Source: Synergistales bacterium (lineage in GTDB: Bacteria > Synergistota > Synergistia > Synergistales > JAFGMB01). From it: a DNA stretch of 64,000 nt. Position 1 is the first letter of the stretch. Each line of letters opens with the position of its first letter. Location of the stretch: NCBI GenBank assembly GCA_963666205.1, contig OY762654.1, positions 448,001 through 512,000 on the forward strand, read 5' to 3'. Shown in pieces: positions 45,541-53,075 of the stretch. The position numbers and the translations under genes were made by a program. The notes beneath the pieces are model-generated. The model did no database searches and was not told the DNA's origin. It worked only from the letters and a program-made list of their open reading frames with translations.

Positions 45541-45909
45541 ATGATGGGTTGCATATTCTGTAATATCTCCGAGGAAATGATATTCGAAAACGAACTTGCC
45601 TATGCCATCTATGATGGTTTCCCTGTCAATAAAGGACATATGTTGGTCATCACCAGAAGACACGTGAGTTCATATTTTGATGCTACAGAAGAAGAGATAA
45701 TTGCAATCCAGCATCTACTACTGAAGTGTAAAGATCATTTAGACCGACTTTATAAACCTGATGGATATAATGTCGGGATAAACATAGGAATGCCCGCAGG
45801 ACAGTCAATAATGCACCTGCATGTTCATATAATCCCCAGGTACATAGGAGATCTGGAAAACCCAAAAGGTGGAGTCAGGGGGGTACTTCCCTTTAAAAGA
45901 CACTATTAA
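45541..45909 (+). CDS. HIT family protein
   Basis: CIFC, PVNKGH and GQSIMHLHVHIIPR. Confidence 0.93.
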   Translation: MMGCIFCNISEEMIFENELAYAIYDGFPVNKGHMLVITRRHVSSYFDATEEEIIAIQHLLLKCKDHLDRLYKPDGYNVGINIGMPAGQSIMHLHVHIIPRYIGDLENPKGGVRGVLPFKRHY

Positions 45910-45975: not shown

Positions 45976-46095
45976 TGCAATCAGTTCCAACAGCTGTATC
46001 TGTGGAAAACCCAACTCCGGGGGATTTTAACATTTCTCGCCCAAAATACAAAATACCCCTAACACATTAAAAGTGCTGGGATCCTTTGCTATTAC
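45976..46095 (-). repeat. tRNA-downstream repeat, copy D (most degenerate)
   Basis: TGCAATC..TTCCAA...GAAAACCCAACTCCGG.GGA...CCAAAATA...AACAC...AAAAGTG.TGGGATCCTTTG.TATTAC aligns to copies A-C. Confidence 0.75.
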
Positions 46096-46142
46096 ACGAT
46101 GATTACAGACAGTTCCTTTTCCCTTCCTGGCAAATAAAAACA

Positions 46143-47129
46143 TTAACGATCAATGTTGCTGATGCTTTCGGGAAGTATATTCATATCCTTTTTAAGAAGT
46201 TGCTCAAAGTAATCCACGGTTTTTTTCAAACCATTCTCAAGATCTGTTGTTGGCTCCCAGCCAAGGGTCTTCTTTGCCATTGAAATGTCAGGCAACCTTC
46301 TCCTGGGATCGTCATTCGGGAGGGGGCAGAAAGATACTTCTGAGTTCGAAGAGGTGATCTCAATGATCTTCTCCGCCAGGTCCCTTATGGAAATCTCCTC
46401 AGGGTTACCCAAATTAACCGGTCCTGTAAAGCTGTCGGGAGAATGCATAAAGGAAAAAGCCCCCTCCACAAGGTCATCCACGTAACAGAAGGATCTCGTA
46501 TGGGATCCATCACCGTAAATGGTGATGGGTTCGTTTTTCAAAGCCTGAAGAATGAAATTGGATATCACCCTTCCATCGTTCATTGCCATACGAGGACCAT
46601 ATGTATTGAAGATCCTTGCAACTTTTATCCTAAGCTCATGCTGCCTGTGATAATCGAAGAATAGGGTTTCAGCACATCTTTTCCCTTCGTCATAGCATGA
46701 TCTTGGGCCAATGGGATTCACATTTCCCCAATACTCCTCTCTTTGGGGATGCATATCCGGGTCGCCATATACCTCGCTTGTCGATGCCTGGAATATCTTT
46801 GCTTTAAGTCGTTTTGCCAGGCCAAGCATGTTTATGGCTCCATGAACACTTGTCTTGGTAGTCTGGACAGGATCCCACTGGTAATGCTGGGGAGATGCAG
46901 GACACGCAAGATTATATATCTGGTCCACCTCAACATATAGAGGAAAGGTAATGTCATGTCGGAGTACTTCAAAATATCTATGATCCATCAAATTAGTGAT
47001 ATTAATCTTAGAGCCTGTAAAGAAATTATCTGCACAGATCACTTCATGCCCCTGATCCAGCAGTTTTTCACAAAGGTGGGAACCAATAAATCCTGCTCCT
47101 CCAGTAACCAGAATTCTTTTTCTCAACAT
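46143..47129 (-). CDS. UDP-glucuronic acid decarboxylase (UDP-xylose synthase) family
   Basis: [23 protein letters not shown] and YDEGKR. Confidence 0.93.
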
Positions 47130-47247
47130 TCGTTCAACTCCATCTTAATGTACATATCTCAAGAACCTGGAAATCCGCAACTTAAAGCAGGTTCCTGTGA
47201 AGATATTACCGGGAAGTAATAATCCACACCAATACAGGATATCACGA

Positions 47248-48171
47248 TCATGAACAGAAAGGCCTTTTAGACTTCCTGTTCATGAGATAATGGGAAATCA
47301 CCTTTCTAGCAGGCCTGAGCTTTTTCCTGAAAGGCATATTACAATCCATGATAGCCTTAAGGTATGTATTCAGATCTCCCAGGGTGAGCTCCGGTAAGGC
47401 AGCAAACTCGAATCTTAGAAGTTCCGGGACCCTGGAAACGATCATATCCCTGGCCAGAAATTTAAACAGTCTGTTCTTGGACAGCTCCCTCAGATACTCC
47501 TTATGAGGTGGTATTCTCCTTCCCTGAAGGTAGTTTTCCCCATGGATCCTGTAATTAACGAAGGGTGTTCGGATATGACACTTGTAACCACTCCTGATCG
47601 AAGCCCCCCAGATAAGACAGTCATCAGCCCTTATCATCCAGTCATCCTCATAGGGAATGGGAAGGATCTTTCCCAGAAGTTCTCTTCTCATCGATATGCA
47701 GGAGGTGGGAGAACCTATCCAGAGTTCCTCAATATATGTTATTACTGAAGTATAACCATAATGTTCCTTGGGGCGGGAGCGATAGGTATGGCTCATTTGC
47801 TTTCCATGGTTATCAACAAAACACGGTTTGCAGAAGATAAAGTCACAGATCGGATTCGCTATGTAATATTGAACCGTCTTCTCAATGTATTCTTTTTCAT
47901 AGAAGTCATCTGAATCCAGAAAGAATACCAGTTCTCCTTCAATATATGGTAGAGCCGTATTGAAACATGAAAGCTGGCCACCATTTTCTTTGGTAACCAA
48001 CACCACATTGTCTGCAAGATATCTTTCGGCAACAGCAACAGACCCGTCAGTGGAACCATCATCAACTATGATAAGCTGTATATCCCTGTAGGTCTGGCCC
48101 AATACAGATTCTATGGCTTCTGCAAGGTATCGCTCATAATTGTAATTGTTTATCACGACACTACAAAGCAA
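47248..48171 (-). CDS. Glycosyltransferase family 2
   Basis: NNYNYERYL, VDDGSTD and FLDSDD. Confidence 0.92.
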   Translation of the reverse strand: MLCSVVINNYNYERYLAEAIESVLGQTYRDIQLIIVDDGSTDGSVAVAERYLADNVVLVTKENGGQLSCFNTALPYIEGELVFFLDSDDFYEKEYIEKTVQYYIANPICDFIFCKPCFVDNHGKQMSHTYRSRPKEHYGYTSVITYIEELWIGSPTSCISMRRELLGKILPIPYEDDWMIRADDCLIWGASIRSGYKCHIRTPFVNYRIHGENYLQGRRIPPHKEYLRELSKNRLFKFLARDMIVSRVPELLRFEFAALPELTLGDLNTYLKAIMDCNMPFRKKLRPARKVISHYLMNRKSKRPFCS

Positions 48172-48412
48172 AATCTAAAAACCTCCCGAAAAGTCAGTTA
48201 AAGTTCCCGTTCTCTCAGAACAGATTTCATGGCAATTATTATGGCGCCACATCCTTCAACGAGCAATACGAGCATTCCCGCTTTCAGATCCCTTACCATT
48301 CTACAATGATATTCGGGGGATTTTTATTGCTCAAGAACAAGTATTAGTTAAGATCTTCAACCTTAAATTCGATTTTAGCTTTCTCAGGATATGTCAATTC
48401 ATTATTCGTAAC

Positions 48413-48579
48413 AATACACCCGAAAGATGAAAAAACTCTTTGTCCTAATTTCCGGTAATCCATTCCGGTTCCTTATTCCAGCAAAATCCGGCTCCTGTGG
48501 ACTTGCAAGTTTTAAGCCCAAAATAAAAAGGACCCCGAACACCCAAAAAGTATTGGGATCCTTTAGTATTACTTAATTG
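48413..48579 (-). repeat. tRNA-downstream repeat, copy C
   Basis: AATACACCCGAAAGA...AATCCATTCC...GCTCC..GGACTT...AAAATAAAAAGGACCCCGAACAC...GGATCCTTT..TATTACT. Confidence 0.88.
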
Positions 48580-48604
48580 AGTCTAAAGACTTGTATGACC
48601 AGGT

Positions 48605-50248
48605 TTATTTGATTTTTCTTGAGAGAACAATAAGTGGGGCTACCAGCAACAGCGCGATGCCCGGCAGTGCAGAGATGTTGCAGCCATCTGAATCTCTATT
48701 GACTATGTCATCATCAGTAGCACATAGCCGAAAATCTGCACTTAAAACATGGTTATCTGATACGTTATGGAAGATATAGGTGTTACTGGCTTCATCATAG
48801 GAAACAGCACTATCATCTACGTATACTACTTCGATCTCGTAACCCTCAGATGGCACCAGATAAAAGACTTCATCCTCTATTCCGGCTAATGTATGCGCTT
48901 CTGTCGGTGAAATACTTCCTCCGTCTGAACATGTGGCAATAATCTCATAAACTTGAATTCCAGATTCATAGGCACCAATATCGAAACTACCACCATTGAA
49001 AGGTTTGGATGCTCCGCGCTGGTCGGTACTCACTTCAGCAATTGTCATTCCGGCATCTATAGCAGAACTGCCTTCTCCGAGTGCACATGTCCAGATAGGT
49101 CCGCCGTTGTCGGCCAGATCCTGTAACACAGGATCTGCAGAGGTAACATATTCAGATATCGTACTTCCATCATAGTCATCGCTTTGGACGACACAATAAC
49201 TCAAGGTGGTCGTACTAGAATCGTTGTGTATCTCTCCCCCAGTATCATTCCAGAATATGCAGTTGGTCACTTCTGGACTGGAATAATTGTTGTACATTCC
49301 ACCGCCAATAATTGCAGTGTTGTAGTAAAAGGTGCAGTTGGTCATTGGGAGACTGGAACTTTGGTTTCTCATTCCACCTCCATCTTCAACTGCACTGTTT
49401 AGACCGAAGGTACAGTTCGTCACAGTGGAATCGGACTCTATATTGTCCATCCCTCCGCCGGAATTTGCGCTGTTTCCGGAGAAGGTGCAGTTTGTCACGG
49501 TGCAACTCACTTTAAAGTTGAACATCCCGCCGCCCCATCTGTCTGCGCTGTTCAAAGTGAAGGTACAATTTGACACTTCGGGGCTGCAATCTTCATTGTA
49601 CATTCCTGCGCCTATACCTGCACTATTCGAGGAAAAGGTACAGTTTGTCACGATGGGGCTCGCTTGATCGGTGAAATTCCTTAAATTGCACATCCCTCCG
49701 CCGGAATAAATTCCGCTGTTTGATGAGAAAGTGCATTTCGTCACTTCAGGACTGGAATCGGTGTTGAATATCGCGCCGCCGGAGTATGCGCTGTTTCCGG
49801 TGAAGGTACAGTTCATAATTTTAGTATCGGACTCATGGTTGTATATACCTCCACCTCCGCTTCTACTAGCATCTCCGCTCACAATGGAAATACCTGATAT
49901 GTCTAACGATGCCCTAGTATCGATATAAAAGACCCTGCATGCTCCACCTCCGCTTACAGCAAGCAAATCAGGTCCAGGTCCATTTATTTTCATACCATTA
50001 TGTATTTGCAGCTGTGAATTGAGATTAATGGTTCCTGTTACATCAAAGCTGATAACATCATCATACGAATCTGCACTGGCAATGGCTGCCCTTAAAGACC
50101 CGGGAACATCATCACTTAAAGTAGTAACAGTAAAGACTTCAGCCTTGACTGGAGTTGCCAGAAATCCAATAACTAAAGCTAATAGAAATACAATGGGTAC
50201 AAAAGAAATGAAGCGACGAAAAGAAACTGTGCTGCAACTGCTCTTCAT
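48605..50248 (-). CDS. Surface protein: parallel beta-helix repeats, choice-of-anchor Q-like region, Synergist-CTERM-like tail
   Basis: Signal peptide, GSLRAAI, seven NCTF..NSA..GGGM.N repeats, LADNGG...S.AIDAG...DQRG...DIGAYE, and GCNISALPGIALLLVAPLIVLSRKIK. Confidence 0.88.
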   Translation of the reverse strand: MKSSCSTVSFRRFISFVPIVFLLALVIGFLATPVKAEVFTVTTLSDDVPGSLRAAIASADSYDDVISFDVTGTINLNSQLQIHNGMKINGPGPDLLAVSGGGACRVFYIDTRASLDISGISIVSGDASRSGGGGIYNHESDTKIMNCTFTGNSAYSGGAIFNTDSSPEVTKCTFSSNSGIYSGGGMCNLRNFTDQASPIVTNCTFSSNSAGIGAGMYNEDCSPEVSNCTFTLNSADRWGGGMFNFKVSCTVTNCTFSGNSANSGGGMDNIESDSTVTNCTFGLNSAVEDGGGMRNQSSSLPMTNCTFYYNTAIIGGGMYNNYSSPEVTNCIFWNDTGGEIHNDSSTTTLSYCVVQSDDYDGSTISEYVTSADPVLQDLADNGGPIWTCALGEGSSAIDAGMTIAEVSTDQRGASKPFNGGSFDIGAYESGIQVYEIIATCSDGGSISPTEAHTLAGIEDEVFYLVPSEGYEIEVVYVDDSAVSYDEASNTYIFHNVSDNHVLSADFRLCATDDDIVNRDSDGCNISALPGIALLLVAPLIVLSRKIK

Positions 50249-50360
50249 GTAAAGTACCTCCTAAAGTGGAAATCAGGTTATGGAAAGAATAACAAGCGGT
50301 CTTGCAATGGAGATTAAGAAAGGACGTAAAAACATTTGTAGAGTTAATCAGAAAAGACTT

Positions 50361-50392
50361 TTTCATGTTAGCACTATGGGTCTATTGGTCAA
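50361..50392 (-). promoter_or_regulatory. Putative promoter of surface protein 48605-50248
   Basis: TTGACC-16bp-TAACAT with TG extension; same arrangement upstream of the paralogue. Confidence 0.5.
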
Positions 50393-50460
50393 GTTAATTC
50401 ACTGCATGAAAGAGTAACAGTTTTTCTGGAATACATTCTAAAAAGCTGTTTACTTCGCTC

Positions 50461-50631
50461 AATCAACCCGACAGACGCAACGGACTCCCCTTCCTCCAAT
50501 TCCTGCAATCCATTCCAAACACCGCATTCTTTCAAAACCCAGCTCCGGCGGACTTGGACTTTTTCAGTGCAAAATAAAAAGGACCCCGAACACATGAAAA
50601 GTGTTAGGATCCTTTGATATTACTATATTTG
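50461..50631 (-). repeat. tRNA-downstream repeat, copy B
   Basis: Ungapped 171-nt alignment to copy A with 17 mismatches by hand count (~90%). Confidence 0.95.
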
Positions 50632-50656
50632 ATTTAAAGAACCTGTGTTGTCGGGC

Positions 50657-52060
50657 TTACTTCATTTTTATCGACAGGAACATCAGCGGTAACGCCAGCA
50701 ACAATGCAATATCTGGTAGTGCAGAAATGCTGCATCCATCACCGGAATTTATATCATCTACAGCAGGTTTGAAATCAGCACTTATTTCGTGATTGCCAGA
50801 TACGTTATGGAAGGTATAGGTGTTACTGGCTTCATCGTAAGAAACAACACCCTCATCCACATAGACTGCCCCTATCTCGTAACCCTCAGCTGGCATAAGA
50901 TAAAAGACTTCATCTTCTATTCCGGCTAGTGTATGCGCTTCTGTTGGTGAAATGGTACCTCCATCCGAGCAGGTAGCAGTAATTTCATACACTTCAAGTC
51001 CGGATTCATAGGCACCGATGTCATAACTTTCTCCCTGAGGCCTTAGAACTCCCCGCTGGTCTGTGGCTGGTGCTTCAATAGTGTCGTCATATATTATTAT
51101 AGTGTCAATTCCTGCATCTATCGCTGAACTACCTTCACCGAGCGAGCATGTCCAGGTGTTACCTCCGTTATCAGCCAGATATAAAAGATTGGGATCGGCG
51201 TTGGTATTATTGTCTCCATAACTACCTGGTTCGTCATCGGATATTACACAGTATCTGAAATGGGCATAACTATTATATATTTCACCGCCCGTATTTCCCC
51301 AGAATATGGAATTGATTATTATGGGAATAGCTTTACCAATCCACATGCCACCACCACAATTTGCACTATTCAAGGTGAAGGTACAATTCATCACTGTACT
51401 ATAAGACGAATCGCAGTATATTCCACCACCATCATTTGCAGTGTTTGAGATGAAGGTACAGTTGGTCACCTTAAGGGTGCAAGTCCAATTGTACATCCCA
51501 CCACCATCTTCAAATGCACTATTTGAAGCGAAGGTACAGTTGGTCACGATAGGACTATGTGAATAAGTATTGCACATCCCGCCGCCACCATACGCACGGT
51601 TTCCACTGAAATGGCAGTTATCCACTGTGAGTTTATCTGACTTGTTGTATATGCCTCCACCATATTCTGTACCTGCATTCCCGCTCACTATGGAAATACC
51701 TGATATGTCCACGGACTCAACAGTGTCCTCAATATAGAACACCCTGCACACTCCTCCACCGCTTACAGAAAGCAGATCGGCGCCGGGTCCCTGGATAGTC
51801 AGTCCATGGTCAATGCTGAGCTGTTCATCCAATGTAATGATCGCCGGATAATCAAGCTCAAAGGTTATGACATCCTGGCTTGTGGCATTTTCGATAGCAT
51901 GTCTCAATGATCCTGCACCAGTATCGTTGGTATTGGTAACTGTAGAAACCGCGGCATAACCCGCTGTATCCGCAAAACTAATAAATATAACTAGTAGAAA
52001 TGTAAAAAAGACGAGTATTAAAGAATATCGAAAAGAAAACCTGCTATAACTGTTCTTCAT
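50657..52060 (-). CDS. Surface protein paralogue: beta-helix repeats, choice-of-anchor Q-like region, Synergist-CTERM-like tail
   Basis: GSLRHAI, four NCxF..N.A..GGG repeats, DQRG...DIGAYE, and GCSISALPDIALLLALPLMFLSIKMK. Confidence 0.88.
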   Translation of the reverse strand: MKNSYSRFSFRYSLILVFFTFLLVIFISFADTAGYAAVSTVTNTNDTGAGSLRHAIENATSQDVITFELDYPAIITLDEQLSIDHGLTIQGPGADLLSVSGGGVCRVFYIEDTVESVDISGISIVSGNAGTEYGGGIYNKSDKLTVDNCHFSGNRAYGGGGMCNTYSHSPIVTNCTFASNSAFEDGGGMYNWTCTLKVTNCTFISNTANDGGGIYCDSSYSTVMNCTFTLNSANCGGGMWIGKAIPIIINSIFWGNTGGEIYNSYAHFRYCVISDDEPGSYGDNNTNADPNLLYLADNGGNTWTCSLGEGSSAIDAGIDTIIIYDDTIEAPATDQRGVLRPQGESYDIGAYESGLEVYEITATCSDGGTISPTEAHTLAGIEDEVFYLMPAEGYEIGAVYVDEGVVSYDEASNTYTFHNVSGNHEISADFKPAVDDINSGDGCSISALPDIALLLALPLMFLSIKMK

Positions 52061-52277
52061 GTAAAAGACCTCCCCAAATGGAAATCAGGTTATGGAAAAG
52101 ATAACAGGTGATCTTGATGTGATAACAAATAAGAAAGGAATAAAAATGTATACAGGTTTGATGGCTCAAGACTTTTACATATTAACACCATAAATGTATG
52201 GGTCAAGCCTATTCATCGGAGGAAACAGTAACTCTTTTCCCATTTTACTTTACACCAATATTCCTTGTTTTATACTA

Positions 52278-52448
52278 AATCCACCCGACAGACGCAACGG
52301 ACTCCCCTTCCTCCAATTCCTGCAATCCATTCCAGACACCACATTCCTTGAAAACCCAGCTCCGGCGGACTCGTACATTTTCAAGGGAAAATAAAAAGGA
52401 TCCCGAACACAGAAAAAGTGTTGGAATCCTTTGGTATTACTATATTTG
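52278..52448 (-). repeat. tRNA-downstream repeat, copy A (abuts the tRNA CCA; includes the tRNA terminator hairpin)
   Basis: Begins at the tRNA 3' end; minus strand GGATTCCAACAC-loop-GTGTTCGGGATCC-TTTTTATTTT, then ~110 further conserved nt. Confidence 0.95.
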
Positions 52449-52533
52449 GTGCCGAGAGGGAGACTCGAACTCCCACAGGGTCGCCCCCGGCGGATTTTGA
52501 ATCCGCTGCGTCTACCGATTCCGCCATCCCGGC
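52447..52533 (-). tRNA. tRNA-Leu, anticodon CAA
   Basis: GCCGGGATGGCGGAATCGGTAGACGCA-GCGGA-TTCAAAA-TCCGC, long variable arm, GTTCGAGTC, ends ACCA; TTGATT-17bp-TAGACT promoter upstream. Confidence 0.97.
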
Positions 52534-52637
52534 ATGGCACCTGCTCTTCAAGCAAGAAATAGTCTACTGGTTATCTGCGAAAAAATCAACTGTTTTAATC
52601 AGCAACAGGTAAGTGTTTTGATTATTGATTTTACGCC

Positions 52638-53075
52638 TCAGGAACCGGCTTTCATAATCTGGAGCTTGACCTGGAAATATTCATCCCGTTCAAGTTCTCC
52701 TTCTCTAAGGAGATATTCTGAAAGATCTGCTCTGACTATAACCTTGAATCCATTCTCACTCAGAGGAAGCTTGGATGCTTTTTTTATTGAACGGGCAAAA
52801 GCACCATACATCTTCGCGTAATCAACATCATTTGTCTTCAGGGTTTTTAAATCAAGGCTTATCCTCACTTGATCTCCTCCGACAAGACCATCCAGAATAG
52901 CGGTCCGATGAACCACTTTGTCTTCCTGGAGATAGGCAAGACTATCTGTTTCTATGGGCCCTCTGTAGACAAGCAGAACAAAAAGAACTGCCCATATGGA
53001 AACAAGTCCCGCAAAATAGTATTTCCTTTTCTCCGAAATACGTAATATGTCACAACATTCCCTGATGGTCTTCAT
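52638..53075 (-). CDS. Hypothetical protein with one N-terminal TM helix
   Basis: 145-aa ORF with GGAGG SD; no motif recognised. Confidence 0.65.
   Translation of the reverse strand: MKTIRECCDILRISEKRKYYFAGLVSIWAVLFVLLVYRGPIETDSLAYLQEDKVVHRTAILDGLVGGDQVRISLDLKTLKTNDVDYAKMYGAFARSIKKASKLPLSENGFKVIVRADLSEYLLREGELERDEYFQVKLQIMKAGS

Follow-up and report, generated by a model that had tools for sequence, protein, structure and literature searches.

The window analysed here is a 64,000-nucleotide (nt) stretch of a Synergistales bacterium (assembly GCA_963666205.1, contig OY762654.1, positions 448,001 to 512,000). Beside a tRNA-Leu(CAA) gene it carries surface-protein and glycosylation genes separated by four co-oriented copies of a non-coding repeat of ~170 nt. 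The locus is probably a species-variable tandem surface-protein array that has been remodelled by unequal crossing-over, gene conversion and illegitimate replacement, that is, a recombining array of a known kind with a shared terminator-spacer module. Its paralogues are adjacent and co-oriented, and homology runs across whole units. Copy number varies within conserved flanks (86-91% identical), and the junctions are imprecise. A parallel array elsewhere in this genome is laid out alike, though its repeat is unrelated.

The window belongs to a complete genome of 2,948,783 bp (G000), which was compared with a sister species, Acetomicrobium (G001), and with another genus of the same family (G002). 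The wider survey of the Synergistales covered 61 genomes, five from this family (including G000) and 56 from nine other families. The repeat was found in 5/5 genomes of the family, among them G002-G004, and in 0/56 of the others. A 25-copy repeat alignment was drawn from the five genomes and six further contigs (five metagenome, one genome-collection).

Layout of the array

In the direction of transcription of the tRNA gene, the locus reads as follows.

52447..52533, minus strand: tRNA-Leu(CAA) (ARAGORN; Rfam tRNA, 55.8 bits), 100% identical in G001; proximal flank of the array
52275..52448, minus strand: repeat copy A, with hairpin 52395-52432 and T-run, then a conserved half of ~120 nt (repeat finder, MAFFT, profile search)
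52179..52206, minus strand: candidate promoter of surface protein 2, sigma-70-like TTGACC-16-TAATAT with TG extension (consensus match only)
50657..52060, minus strand: surface protein 2, 467 amino acids (aa), PMP-type, choice-of-anchor Q
50458..50631, minus strand: repeat copy B, hairpin 50578-50615, 90% identical to A
50365..50392, minus strand: candidate promoter of surface protein 1, sigma-70-like TTGACC-16-TAACAT with TG extension (consensus match only)
48605..50248, minus strand: surface protein 1, 547 aa, paralogue of surface protein 2
48407..48580, minus strand: repeat copy C, hairpin 48527-48564, second half degenerate
48306-48334, minus strand: third promoter-like hexamer pair, TTGAGC-17-TATCAT (consensus scan)
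47248..48171, minus strand: family GT2 glycosyltransferase, conserved distal member, 88% aa identity to G001
46143..47129, minus strand: UDP-glucuronate decarboxylase (UXS), match to 4gll at E 9e-126, 88% aa identity to G001
45976..46095, minus strand: repeat copy D, hairpin 46048-46089, between the convergent UXS and HIT genes
45541..45909, plus strand: HIT-family gene, conserved distal flank, in synteny with G001

A repeat finder grouped A, B and C as one family of ~170 nt (A/B 90%, C 62%) and D as a shorter fourth member with 63-74% identity to the other three. All four were aligned by MAFFT at a mean column identity of 74%, and identity among the window copies spans 61-90%. The original prediction, made from the letters of the window, had proposed four same-orientation copies at these places, with A and B closest, then C, then D. 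Repeat finder, alignment and genome profile agree on each point, including the membership of D, on which that prediction had staked itself. An nhmmer search of the whole genome returned four loci only (E 7e-58 to 2e-43), which match by construction, the profile having been built from the four window copies. The next-best match (E 0.009) covers the hairpin only. Separate profiles of the terminator half and the ~120-nt half, built from the 25 copies, recover the same four places. With four copies at one locus in the whole genome, the element is not a dispersed repeat of the repetitive extragenic palindrome (REP) or miniature inverted-repeat transposable element (MITE) type, and the locus specificity that had been predicted is upheld.

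The CCA end of the tRNA is the start of copy A, and the other copies carry no tRNA sequence, again as predicted. A search with the 24-nt tRNA end (up to 3 mismatches) found two window matches, both real tRNA-Leu genes and thus no duplicate of the tRNA 3' end. GC content across the array (0.40-0.47) is similar to that of its flanks. Phase-variable simple repeats were considered and dropped, the region holding three trivial tandem repeats of two copies each.

The gene calls of the prediction also hold: two paralogous PMP-like proteins, GT2 and UXS. Surface proteins 1 and 2 are 51% identical over their full length and differ in the number of beta-helix repeats. Both have a signal peptide, PMP-type beta-helix repeats (TIGR01376 / PF02415 matches) and a choice-of-anchor Q domain (NF041518, E 1e-21 and 1e-20), and no autotransporter barrel was reported by domain scans of either. 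Their tails run from a Gly/Ser cluster ending in Cys through a Leu-rich stretch with Pro to basic residues. This fits the description of Synerg-CTERM tails (TIGR04564) as a Gly/Ser cluster leading to Cys, a Leu-rich hydrophobic stretch with Pro, and basic residues, given in the passages of the Haft preprint (10.1101/2023.06.07.544157) on such tails, where Acetomicrobium is not among the genera named. The 40-aa tails match only this model, at 19.5 and 12.3 bits against a cut-off of 22.5, so the resemblance stands while membership is unproven.

Each unit has a predicted sigma-70-like site with TG extension, and a predicted terminator lies between units. The three promoter-like hexamer pairs named beforehand were all located, as consensus matches only; the region as a whole shows no excess of such sites (12, versus 15.8 +/- 3.6 in shuffles). 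The promoter region near surface protein 1 recurs almost identically upstream of a paralogue at G000:1984355, and a homologous promoter also lies upstream of surface protein 2 paralogues elsewhere in the genome.

A predicted terminator followed by a conserved spacer

Read on the minus strand, the first ~50 nt of the repeat form a 15-bp hairpin with one bulged base, followed by a T-run; the hairpin starts ~20 nt past the tRNA or 26-50 nt past a stop codon. This segment is predicted to be an intrinsic (Rho-independent) terminator. The four hairpins fold at -16.9 to -19.6 kcal/mol (z -3.5 to -6.0; copy A, -18.7 kcal/mol, z -5.96), and for each of them 0/200 shuffles fold as well. A simple terminator scan missed the hairpin, presumably owing to the one-base bulge. 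In the 25-copy alignment the hairpin is the sole consensus structure (13 pairs of 37 nt), with 0 compensatory pairs. The upstream neighbours of the 25 copies are PMP-like genes (14), tRNA (3), UXS or a UXS remnant (3), another gene (3) or undetermined (2), and the repeat always lies 3' of the gene in the orientation in which the terminator would function.

The remaining ~120 nt show no conserved RNA structure across the 25 copies. The sequence itself is conserved, so any action there would be at the DNA level. This second half lies ~70-190 nt upstream of the next unit's -35 and contains a short palindrome and a hexamer direct repeat ~72 nt apart. It is best kept in copies preceding PMP genes (A, B and G001 copies 1-6; 65-89% mutual identity). 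In C and D, and in copies 7 and 8 of G001, which lie before GT2 or at array ends, it has decayed (47-65% to the rest). Repeats from different genera share ~81% identity, versus mostly 67-72% (one 84%) for housekeeping genes on the same contig.

Several candidate identities were rejected. The second half has a segment resembling a T-arm and acceptor, and in a comparison with all 52 tRNA genes of G000 the best shared run was 10 nt (tRNA-Thr(cgt)); Rfam gave no tRNA-like match in the repeat. A 45-codon frame in copy A is stopped early in B and lacks its ATG in G001 copy 1, and a possible sigma-54 promoter in the second half has a GG/GC spacing two bases short. A 101-codon open reading frame (ORF) at 52250-52555 (minus strand), spanning the tRNA gene and copy A, is almost certainly spurious.

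The same frame with different content in the sister species

The sister species shares the frame of the locus: tRNA-Leu(CAA) and the first repeat at one end, and GT2, UXS, the last repeat and the HIT gene at the other. The tRNA plus copy A is 91% identical between the two genomes, the GT2-UXS-D-HIT stretch 85.6% over 3377 nt, and copy D pairs by position with the last G001 copy (copy 8) at 89%. Between these flanks G000 has four repeats and two PMP genes. The middle of the G001 locus holds eight repeats, five PMP-like genes (478-907 aa), a DctM-like gene and a 4.1-kb integrase islet; G001 also has one hairpin-only profile match besides this eight-copy locus. The expectation that module content between conserved flanks would differ among species is therefore borne out.

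Homology between units extends well beyond the repeat. Window-versus-G001 alignments of 800-1770 nt run from the repeat through the predicted promoter and 5' untranslated region into the coding sequence (for example 52447-51575, 72% over 910 nt, and 50743-49050, 67% over 1769 nt). Only ~45 nt just past the repeat 3' edge are dissimilar between units, after which homology resumes. Along the array, the G001 copies are 83, 80, 78, 83, 71, 64 and 70% identical to the tRNA-proximal copy. This shows no steady polarity and counts against the sequential addition next to the tRNA that had been proposed. In a tree of repeat copies 16/20 inner branches are unresolved and only three pairs are informative; nearest neighbours are closest relatives in G001 (copies 3/4) and on contig L048 (a/b).

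One junction in G001 retains traces of an earlier unit:

L034:10236-10424 (G001:C6:120236-120424): C-terminal remnant of UXS, flanked by the DctM-like gene, whose ORF end it overlaps, and by repeat copy 6

A copy of the UXS 3' end (last ~65 codons plus 3' flank, 84% over 237 nt) precedes copy 6, the remnant corresponding to aa 264-328 (tblastn E 4e-13), and a decayed PMP-type promoter lies upstream of the DctM-like gene. Given this fragment and this promoter, the simplest history would be a duplicated GT2-UXS unit that was partly overwritten.

Contig L038 (1844 nt) is 88% identical to window 50656-52501, covering tRNA-Leu, repeat and a surface protein 2 orthologue. A 1-nt insertion and the patch next to it are common to copies A and B and absent from the tRNA-proximal copy of L038, whose hairpin loop agrees with B, not A. 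These shared patches point to gene conversion, a form of concerted evolution. The contig is labelled as a Methanosarcinales bin and is probably mis-binned Acetomicrobium DNA.

A parallel array and the repeat in other genomes

A second PMP array in the same genome (G000:1980870-1988019) holds three paralogues. It shares the gene family, promoter region and terminator-plus-spacer layout of the first; its repeat, 154 nt at 99% and 164-172 nt at 76%, gives no profile match to the one studied here, terminator and spacer both being unrelated in sequence. It also differs in having no tRNA in or beside it (ARAGORN genome list; nearest at 1731549 and 2512621) and no GT2-UXS detected. Since this array has an unrelated repeat, a repeated inter-unit module would appear to be a general by-product of duplicating these transcription units.

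In the other genus, G002 has a lone PMP gene with only the second half of the repeat upstream and a full copy downstream, and no tRNA within the 16-kb locus. The two flanks of this unit are far apart in G000 (0.82 Mb vs 2.73 Mb), and no insertion boundary is definable. Among genomes of other families, the flanks of tRNA-Leu(CAA) lacked a PMP gene or repeat in 10/10 in which that tRNA was found, within at most 1.5 kb a side. On these comparisons the tRNA link appears confined to this genus, and tRNA anchoring, which the original prediction had taken as the rule, does not hold as one.

The prediction had also noted that the repeat flanks unrelated genes, and to its GT2-UXS example a LysE, a dehydrogenase and an MFS gene can be added. 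At L046:1107-2290 a LysE-family transporter gene lies between two repeats, with 137 nt separating it from the preceding copy and 10 nt from the following one. On L044 a lone full-length repeat follows a 2-hydroxyacid dehydrogenase gene, between unrelated convergent genes, and on L047 the repeat follows an MFS transporter gene. Of all the cases, the L046 gene looks most like a clean cassette, and it has a promoter-like site of its own.

Proposed history of the locus and points against it

On the favoured explanation, the tandem array would consist of independently promoted PMP-like beta-helix genes with a Synerg-CTERM-like tail, set between tRNA-Leu(CAA) and the GT2-UXS operon. The ~170-nt repeat would be an inter-unit module copied along with each unit, its terminator ending the upstream transcript or the tRNA and its ~120-nt spacer then preceding the next promoter. 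Array growth, loss and content swaps would proceed via general recombination: unequal crossing-over and gene conversion between repeats and other conserved unit parts, with occasional illegitimate replacement altering the content between two repeats. No dedicated recombinase would take part, the tRNA neighbourhood would be incidental, and the changing gene set may serve surface variation. Of the two recombination routes in the original prediction, the homologous one fits these data, whereas a dedicated cassette system or recombinase is at odds with unit-wide homology, imprecise junctions and the lack of a co-occurring recombinase.

Several points weigh against this history. The integrase islet of G001 adjoins the tRNA-proximal repeat precisely at its 3' edge, with an exact 12-nt direct repeat around it, so that edge can serve a tyrosine recombinase as a site at least once. 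The repeat borders non-PMP genes (GT2-UXS in G000 and G001, LysE on L046, and those on L044 and L047). Such neighbours do not arise from simple one-gene duplication, so replacement events have to be invoked, and only one is documented. The ~81% identity between genera suggests that the sequence is under selection or was recently transferred, neither of which follows from passive hitch-hiking. The promoters and terminators are predictions throughout, and any recombination still going on in the array is putative, the data being assembled contigs.

The G001 islet and alternative explanations

The islet is a separate insertion, 170 nt downstream of tRNA-Leu(CAA):

L035:7818-11928 (G001:C6:131817-135927): islet of 4.1 kb, with an HhH-GPD glycosylase-like gene, a DUF6765 gene and genes for tyrosine recombinases of 317 and 188 aa

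Its 12-nt repeat occurs nowhere else in the 30-kb G001 region and 0 times in G000, and the right-hand copy overlaps the stop codon of the 188-aa recombinase gene. The islet itself carries this 12-nt core and no repeat copy. Against the integron-integrase model TIGR02249 the two recombinases score 31.3 and 52.9 bits (cut-off 265). The family of the 188-aa protein was found in 20/61 Synergistales genomes, 18 of them from other families, where the repeat was not found; of the five genomes that bear the repeat, three (G002-G004) gave no match to it. Other copies of the recombinase in G001 lie in other islands, 2/3 within a few kb of tRNA-Ser genes, and the G000 orthologue (76% identical) lies in an island beside tRNA-Arg(acg). 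By this distribution the islet recombinase appears to belong to a mobile-element family of patchy occurrence, and it does not accompany the repeat, contrary to the co-occurrence that the prediction had looked for.

These data bear on the idea that the units are site-specific cassettes, integron-like circles of promoter, gene, terminator and repeat inserted at the repeat 3' edge by a tyrosine recombinase acting in trans. The co-oriented array with n+1 repeats for n units, the mixed cargo (PMP-like, GT2-UXS, DctM-like, LysE) and the drop in inter-unit similarity for ~45 nt right past that edge would all be expected of such a system; the recombinase-bearing islet with its direct repeat lies at the same edge, and a 76%-identical orthologue of its 188-aa enzyme is at hand elsewhere in G000. 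However, units are homologous again beyond the short gap and on into the coding sequence, the junction at the UXS fragment is imprecise, the islet brings no repeat copy with it, and the recombinase was not found in G002-G004, is present in 18 other-family genomes where the repeat was not found, and is sited in other islands in G001. A scan of 18 ORFs between window positions 41.5 and 56.6 kb turned up no recombinase or Phage_integrase gene. Copies that are 61-90% identical also mean that none is a fresh insertion. Such a cassette system is therefore unlikely. A related proposal, that the repeat 3' edge is a recombination core or landing pad for FimB-sized tyrosine recombinases, which would capture self-expressed genes without a resident integrase, is kept in play by the 12-nt direct repeat in G001 and by the repeat-bounded LysE and GT2-UXS units, and is comparably improbable. 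A different question is what the ~120-nt half does. It could be a DNA-level cis-regulatory or architectural element, for instance regulator sites co-ordinating surface-protein and glycosylation genes, and this is possible, if less probable than the favoured explanation. Its sequence is conserved without RNA covariation and better kept across genera than most housekeeping genes of the same contig; it is best preserved before PMP genes and decayed before GT2 or at array ends, it alone is retained upstream of the lone PMP gene of G002, and it holds the palindrome and hexamer repeat. On the other side, PMP paralogues elsewhere in G000 use the same promoter without it (0 further matches in 2.95 Mb), on L044, and in L046 copy a before LysE, a well-kept second half is not followed by a PMP gene, and no binding protein or motif family was identified. 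This proposal concerns the function of the repeat and is compatible with an array built by general recombination. For the ~120-nt half taken by itself, such a role and passive hitch-hiking kept similar by gene conversion have about equal claims.

Two further readings of the repeat fare worse. The repeat or its second half might be a small RNA gene or a structured cis-acting RNA (leader, riboswitch or 3'-UTR, that is 3' untranslated region, element). The four-copy alignment had suggested a second stem-loop, and directly beside copy A a plus-strand promoter-like site (10 of 12) faces into the repeat. The second stem-loop is lost with 25 copies, which give no compensatory pair; Rfam at E<=1 yields tRNA only, the plus-strand site is absent from the other copies, and the T-run is on the minus strand, so the second half falls after the terminator and before the next promoter. 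An RNA element is very improbable on this evidence. A mobile MITE- or REP-like intergenic repeat spreading on its own is close to refuted by copy number and distribution. The element is short, non-coding and hairpin-bearing, and a lone copy sits between unrelated convergent genes on L044. Yet the four G000 copies share one locus and one orientation, the eight full G001 copies likewise lie in one locus, none of the 13 inverted-repeat pairs from the repeat finder was reported as a terminal one, and the repeat had no match in plasmid and phage collections.

A group of tRNA-Arg(acg) islands was also seen in G000. At G000:C1:2751055-2799141 there are three tRNA-Arg(acg) genes, each followed by a paralogous integrase gene within ~300 nt; these integrases are 44-46% identical to the 317-aa protein of G001, and the arrangement looks like stacked integrative elements. 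Contig L049 covers the first part of this stretch. DUF927, DUF499 and an orthologue of the 188-aa recombinase are further cargo of the first element.

Comparison with known systems

Duplication, unequal crossing-over and gene conversion are the means by which pmp gene clusters, and comparable arrays of paralogous genes for surface proteins, diversify. The present locus shares with them co-oriented paralogues bearing PMP-type repeats, copy and repeat numbers that vary between relatives, and mosaic divergence. It differs in the choice-of-anchor Q domain, in the Cys-containing sorting tail with no autotransporter barrel reported, in a predicted promoter for each unit, in a shared terminator-plus-spacer module kept across genera, and in having a GT2-UXS operon and other genes within the repeat frame.

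Chromosomal integrons consist of IntI, attI and attC-bounded cassette arrays, as in the VCR arrays of Vibrio, and most integron cassettes lack promoters and are transcribed from a shared one. Here, too, the array is co-oriented, each unit has a repeat at its 3' end and a hairpin with one unpaired base, and the cargo is heterogeneous and differs between species. Unlike integrons, the locus has no IntI, and the G001 recombinases score far below the model cut-off. Only one third of the repeat is hairpin, with a T-run after it, in contrast to the whole-repeat palindrome of attC, and the units are 1.8-2.7 kb long with their own predicted promoters and imprecise junctions. The likeness to tRNA-targeted islands lies in the array abutting a tRNA gene and in the G001 islet downstream of it. 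The window locus differs from such islands in having no duplicated tRNA 3' end and no integrase; in G001 the direct repeat of the islet lies in the repeat element, not the tRNA, and the integrase is present only as a separate 4.1-kb islet.

The locus would thus be a fast-changing cell-surface locus in Acetomicrobium, a genus of Synergistota. It illustrates how a Synerg-CTERM-like PMP family may expand, whole transcription units being copied, lost and overwritten between fixed flanks, and how an integron-like picture can arise via ordinary tandem duplication. The ~120-nt spacer, which varies less between genera than most of the housekeeping genes compared, offers a small, defined target for regulatory or DNA-binding study. 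If the landing-pad proposal were true, it would amount to integron-like capture of surface genes with self-expressed cassettes and no resident integrase. A narrow literature search (Synerg-CTERM; Acetomicrobium surface proteins) found no title on the locus, which is not proof of absence.

Public sequencing runs and neighbouring sequence

Public sequencing runs were examined as assembled Logan contigs only. In run X4 the GT2 gene shows 1 difference in 580 nt, and in the middle of surface protein 1 44/928 positions differ. This hints at faster change within the array, though strain mixture is possible. Joints in X4 contigs that seem to skip forward or go back between repeat copies are explained by paralogous placement at 90% likeness, and 25 apparent extra letters at 48495/50573 align with a diverged stretch of a normal repeat copy. 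Being paralogous placement, these joints say nothing either way about circles or deletions. Coding regions are partly covered by RNA contigs of X8, with little or no depth at the repeats, a gap that carries no weight because repeats break contigs.

Just upstream of the tRNA gene, a 145-aa ORF at 52638-53075 (minus strand) has no Pfam match, and the stretch is 91% identical in G001. Sequences related to the locus were found in sediment and sludge metagenome runs.

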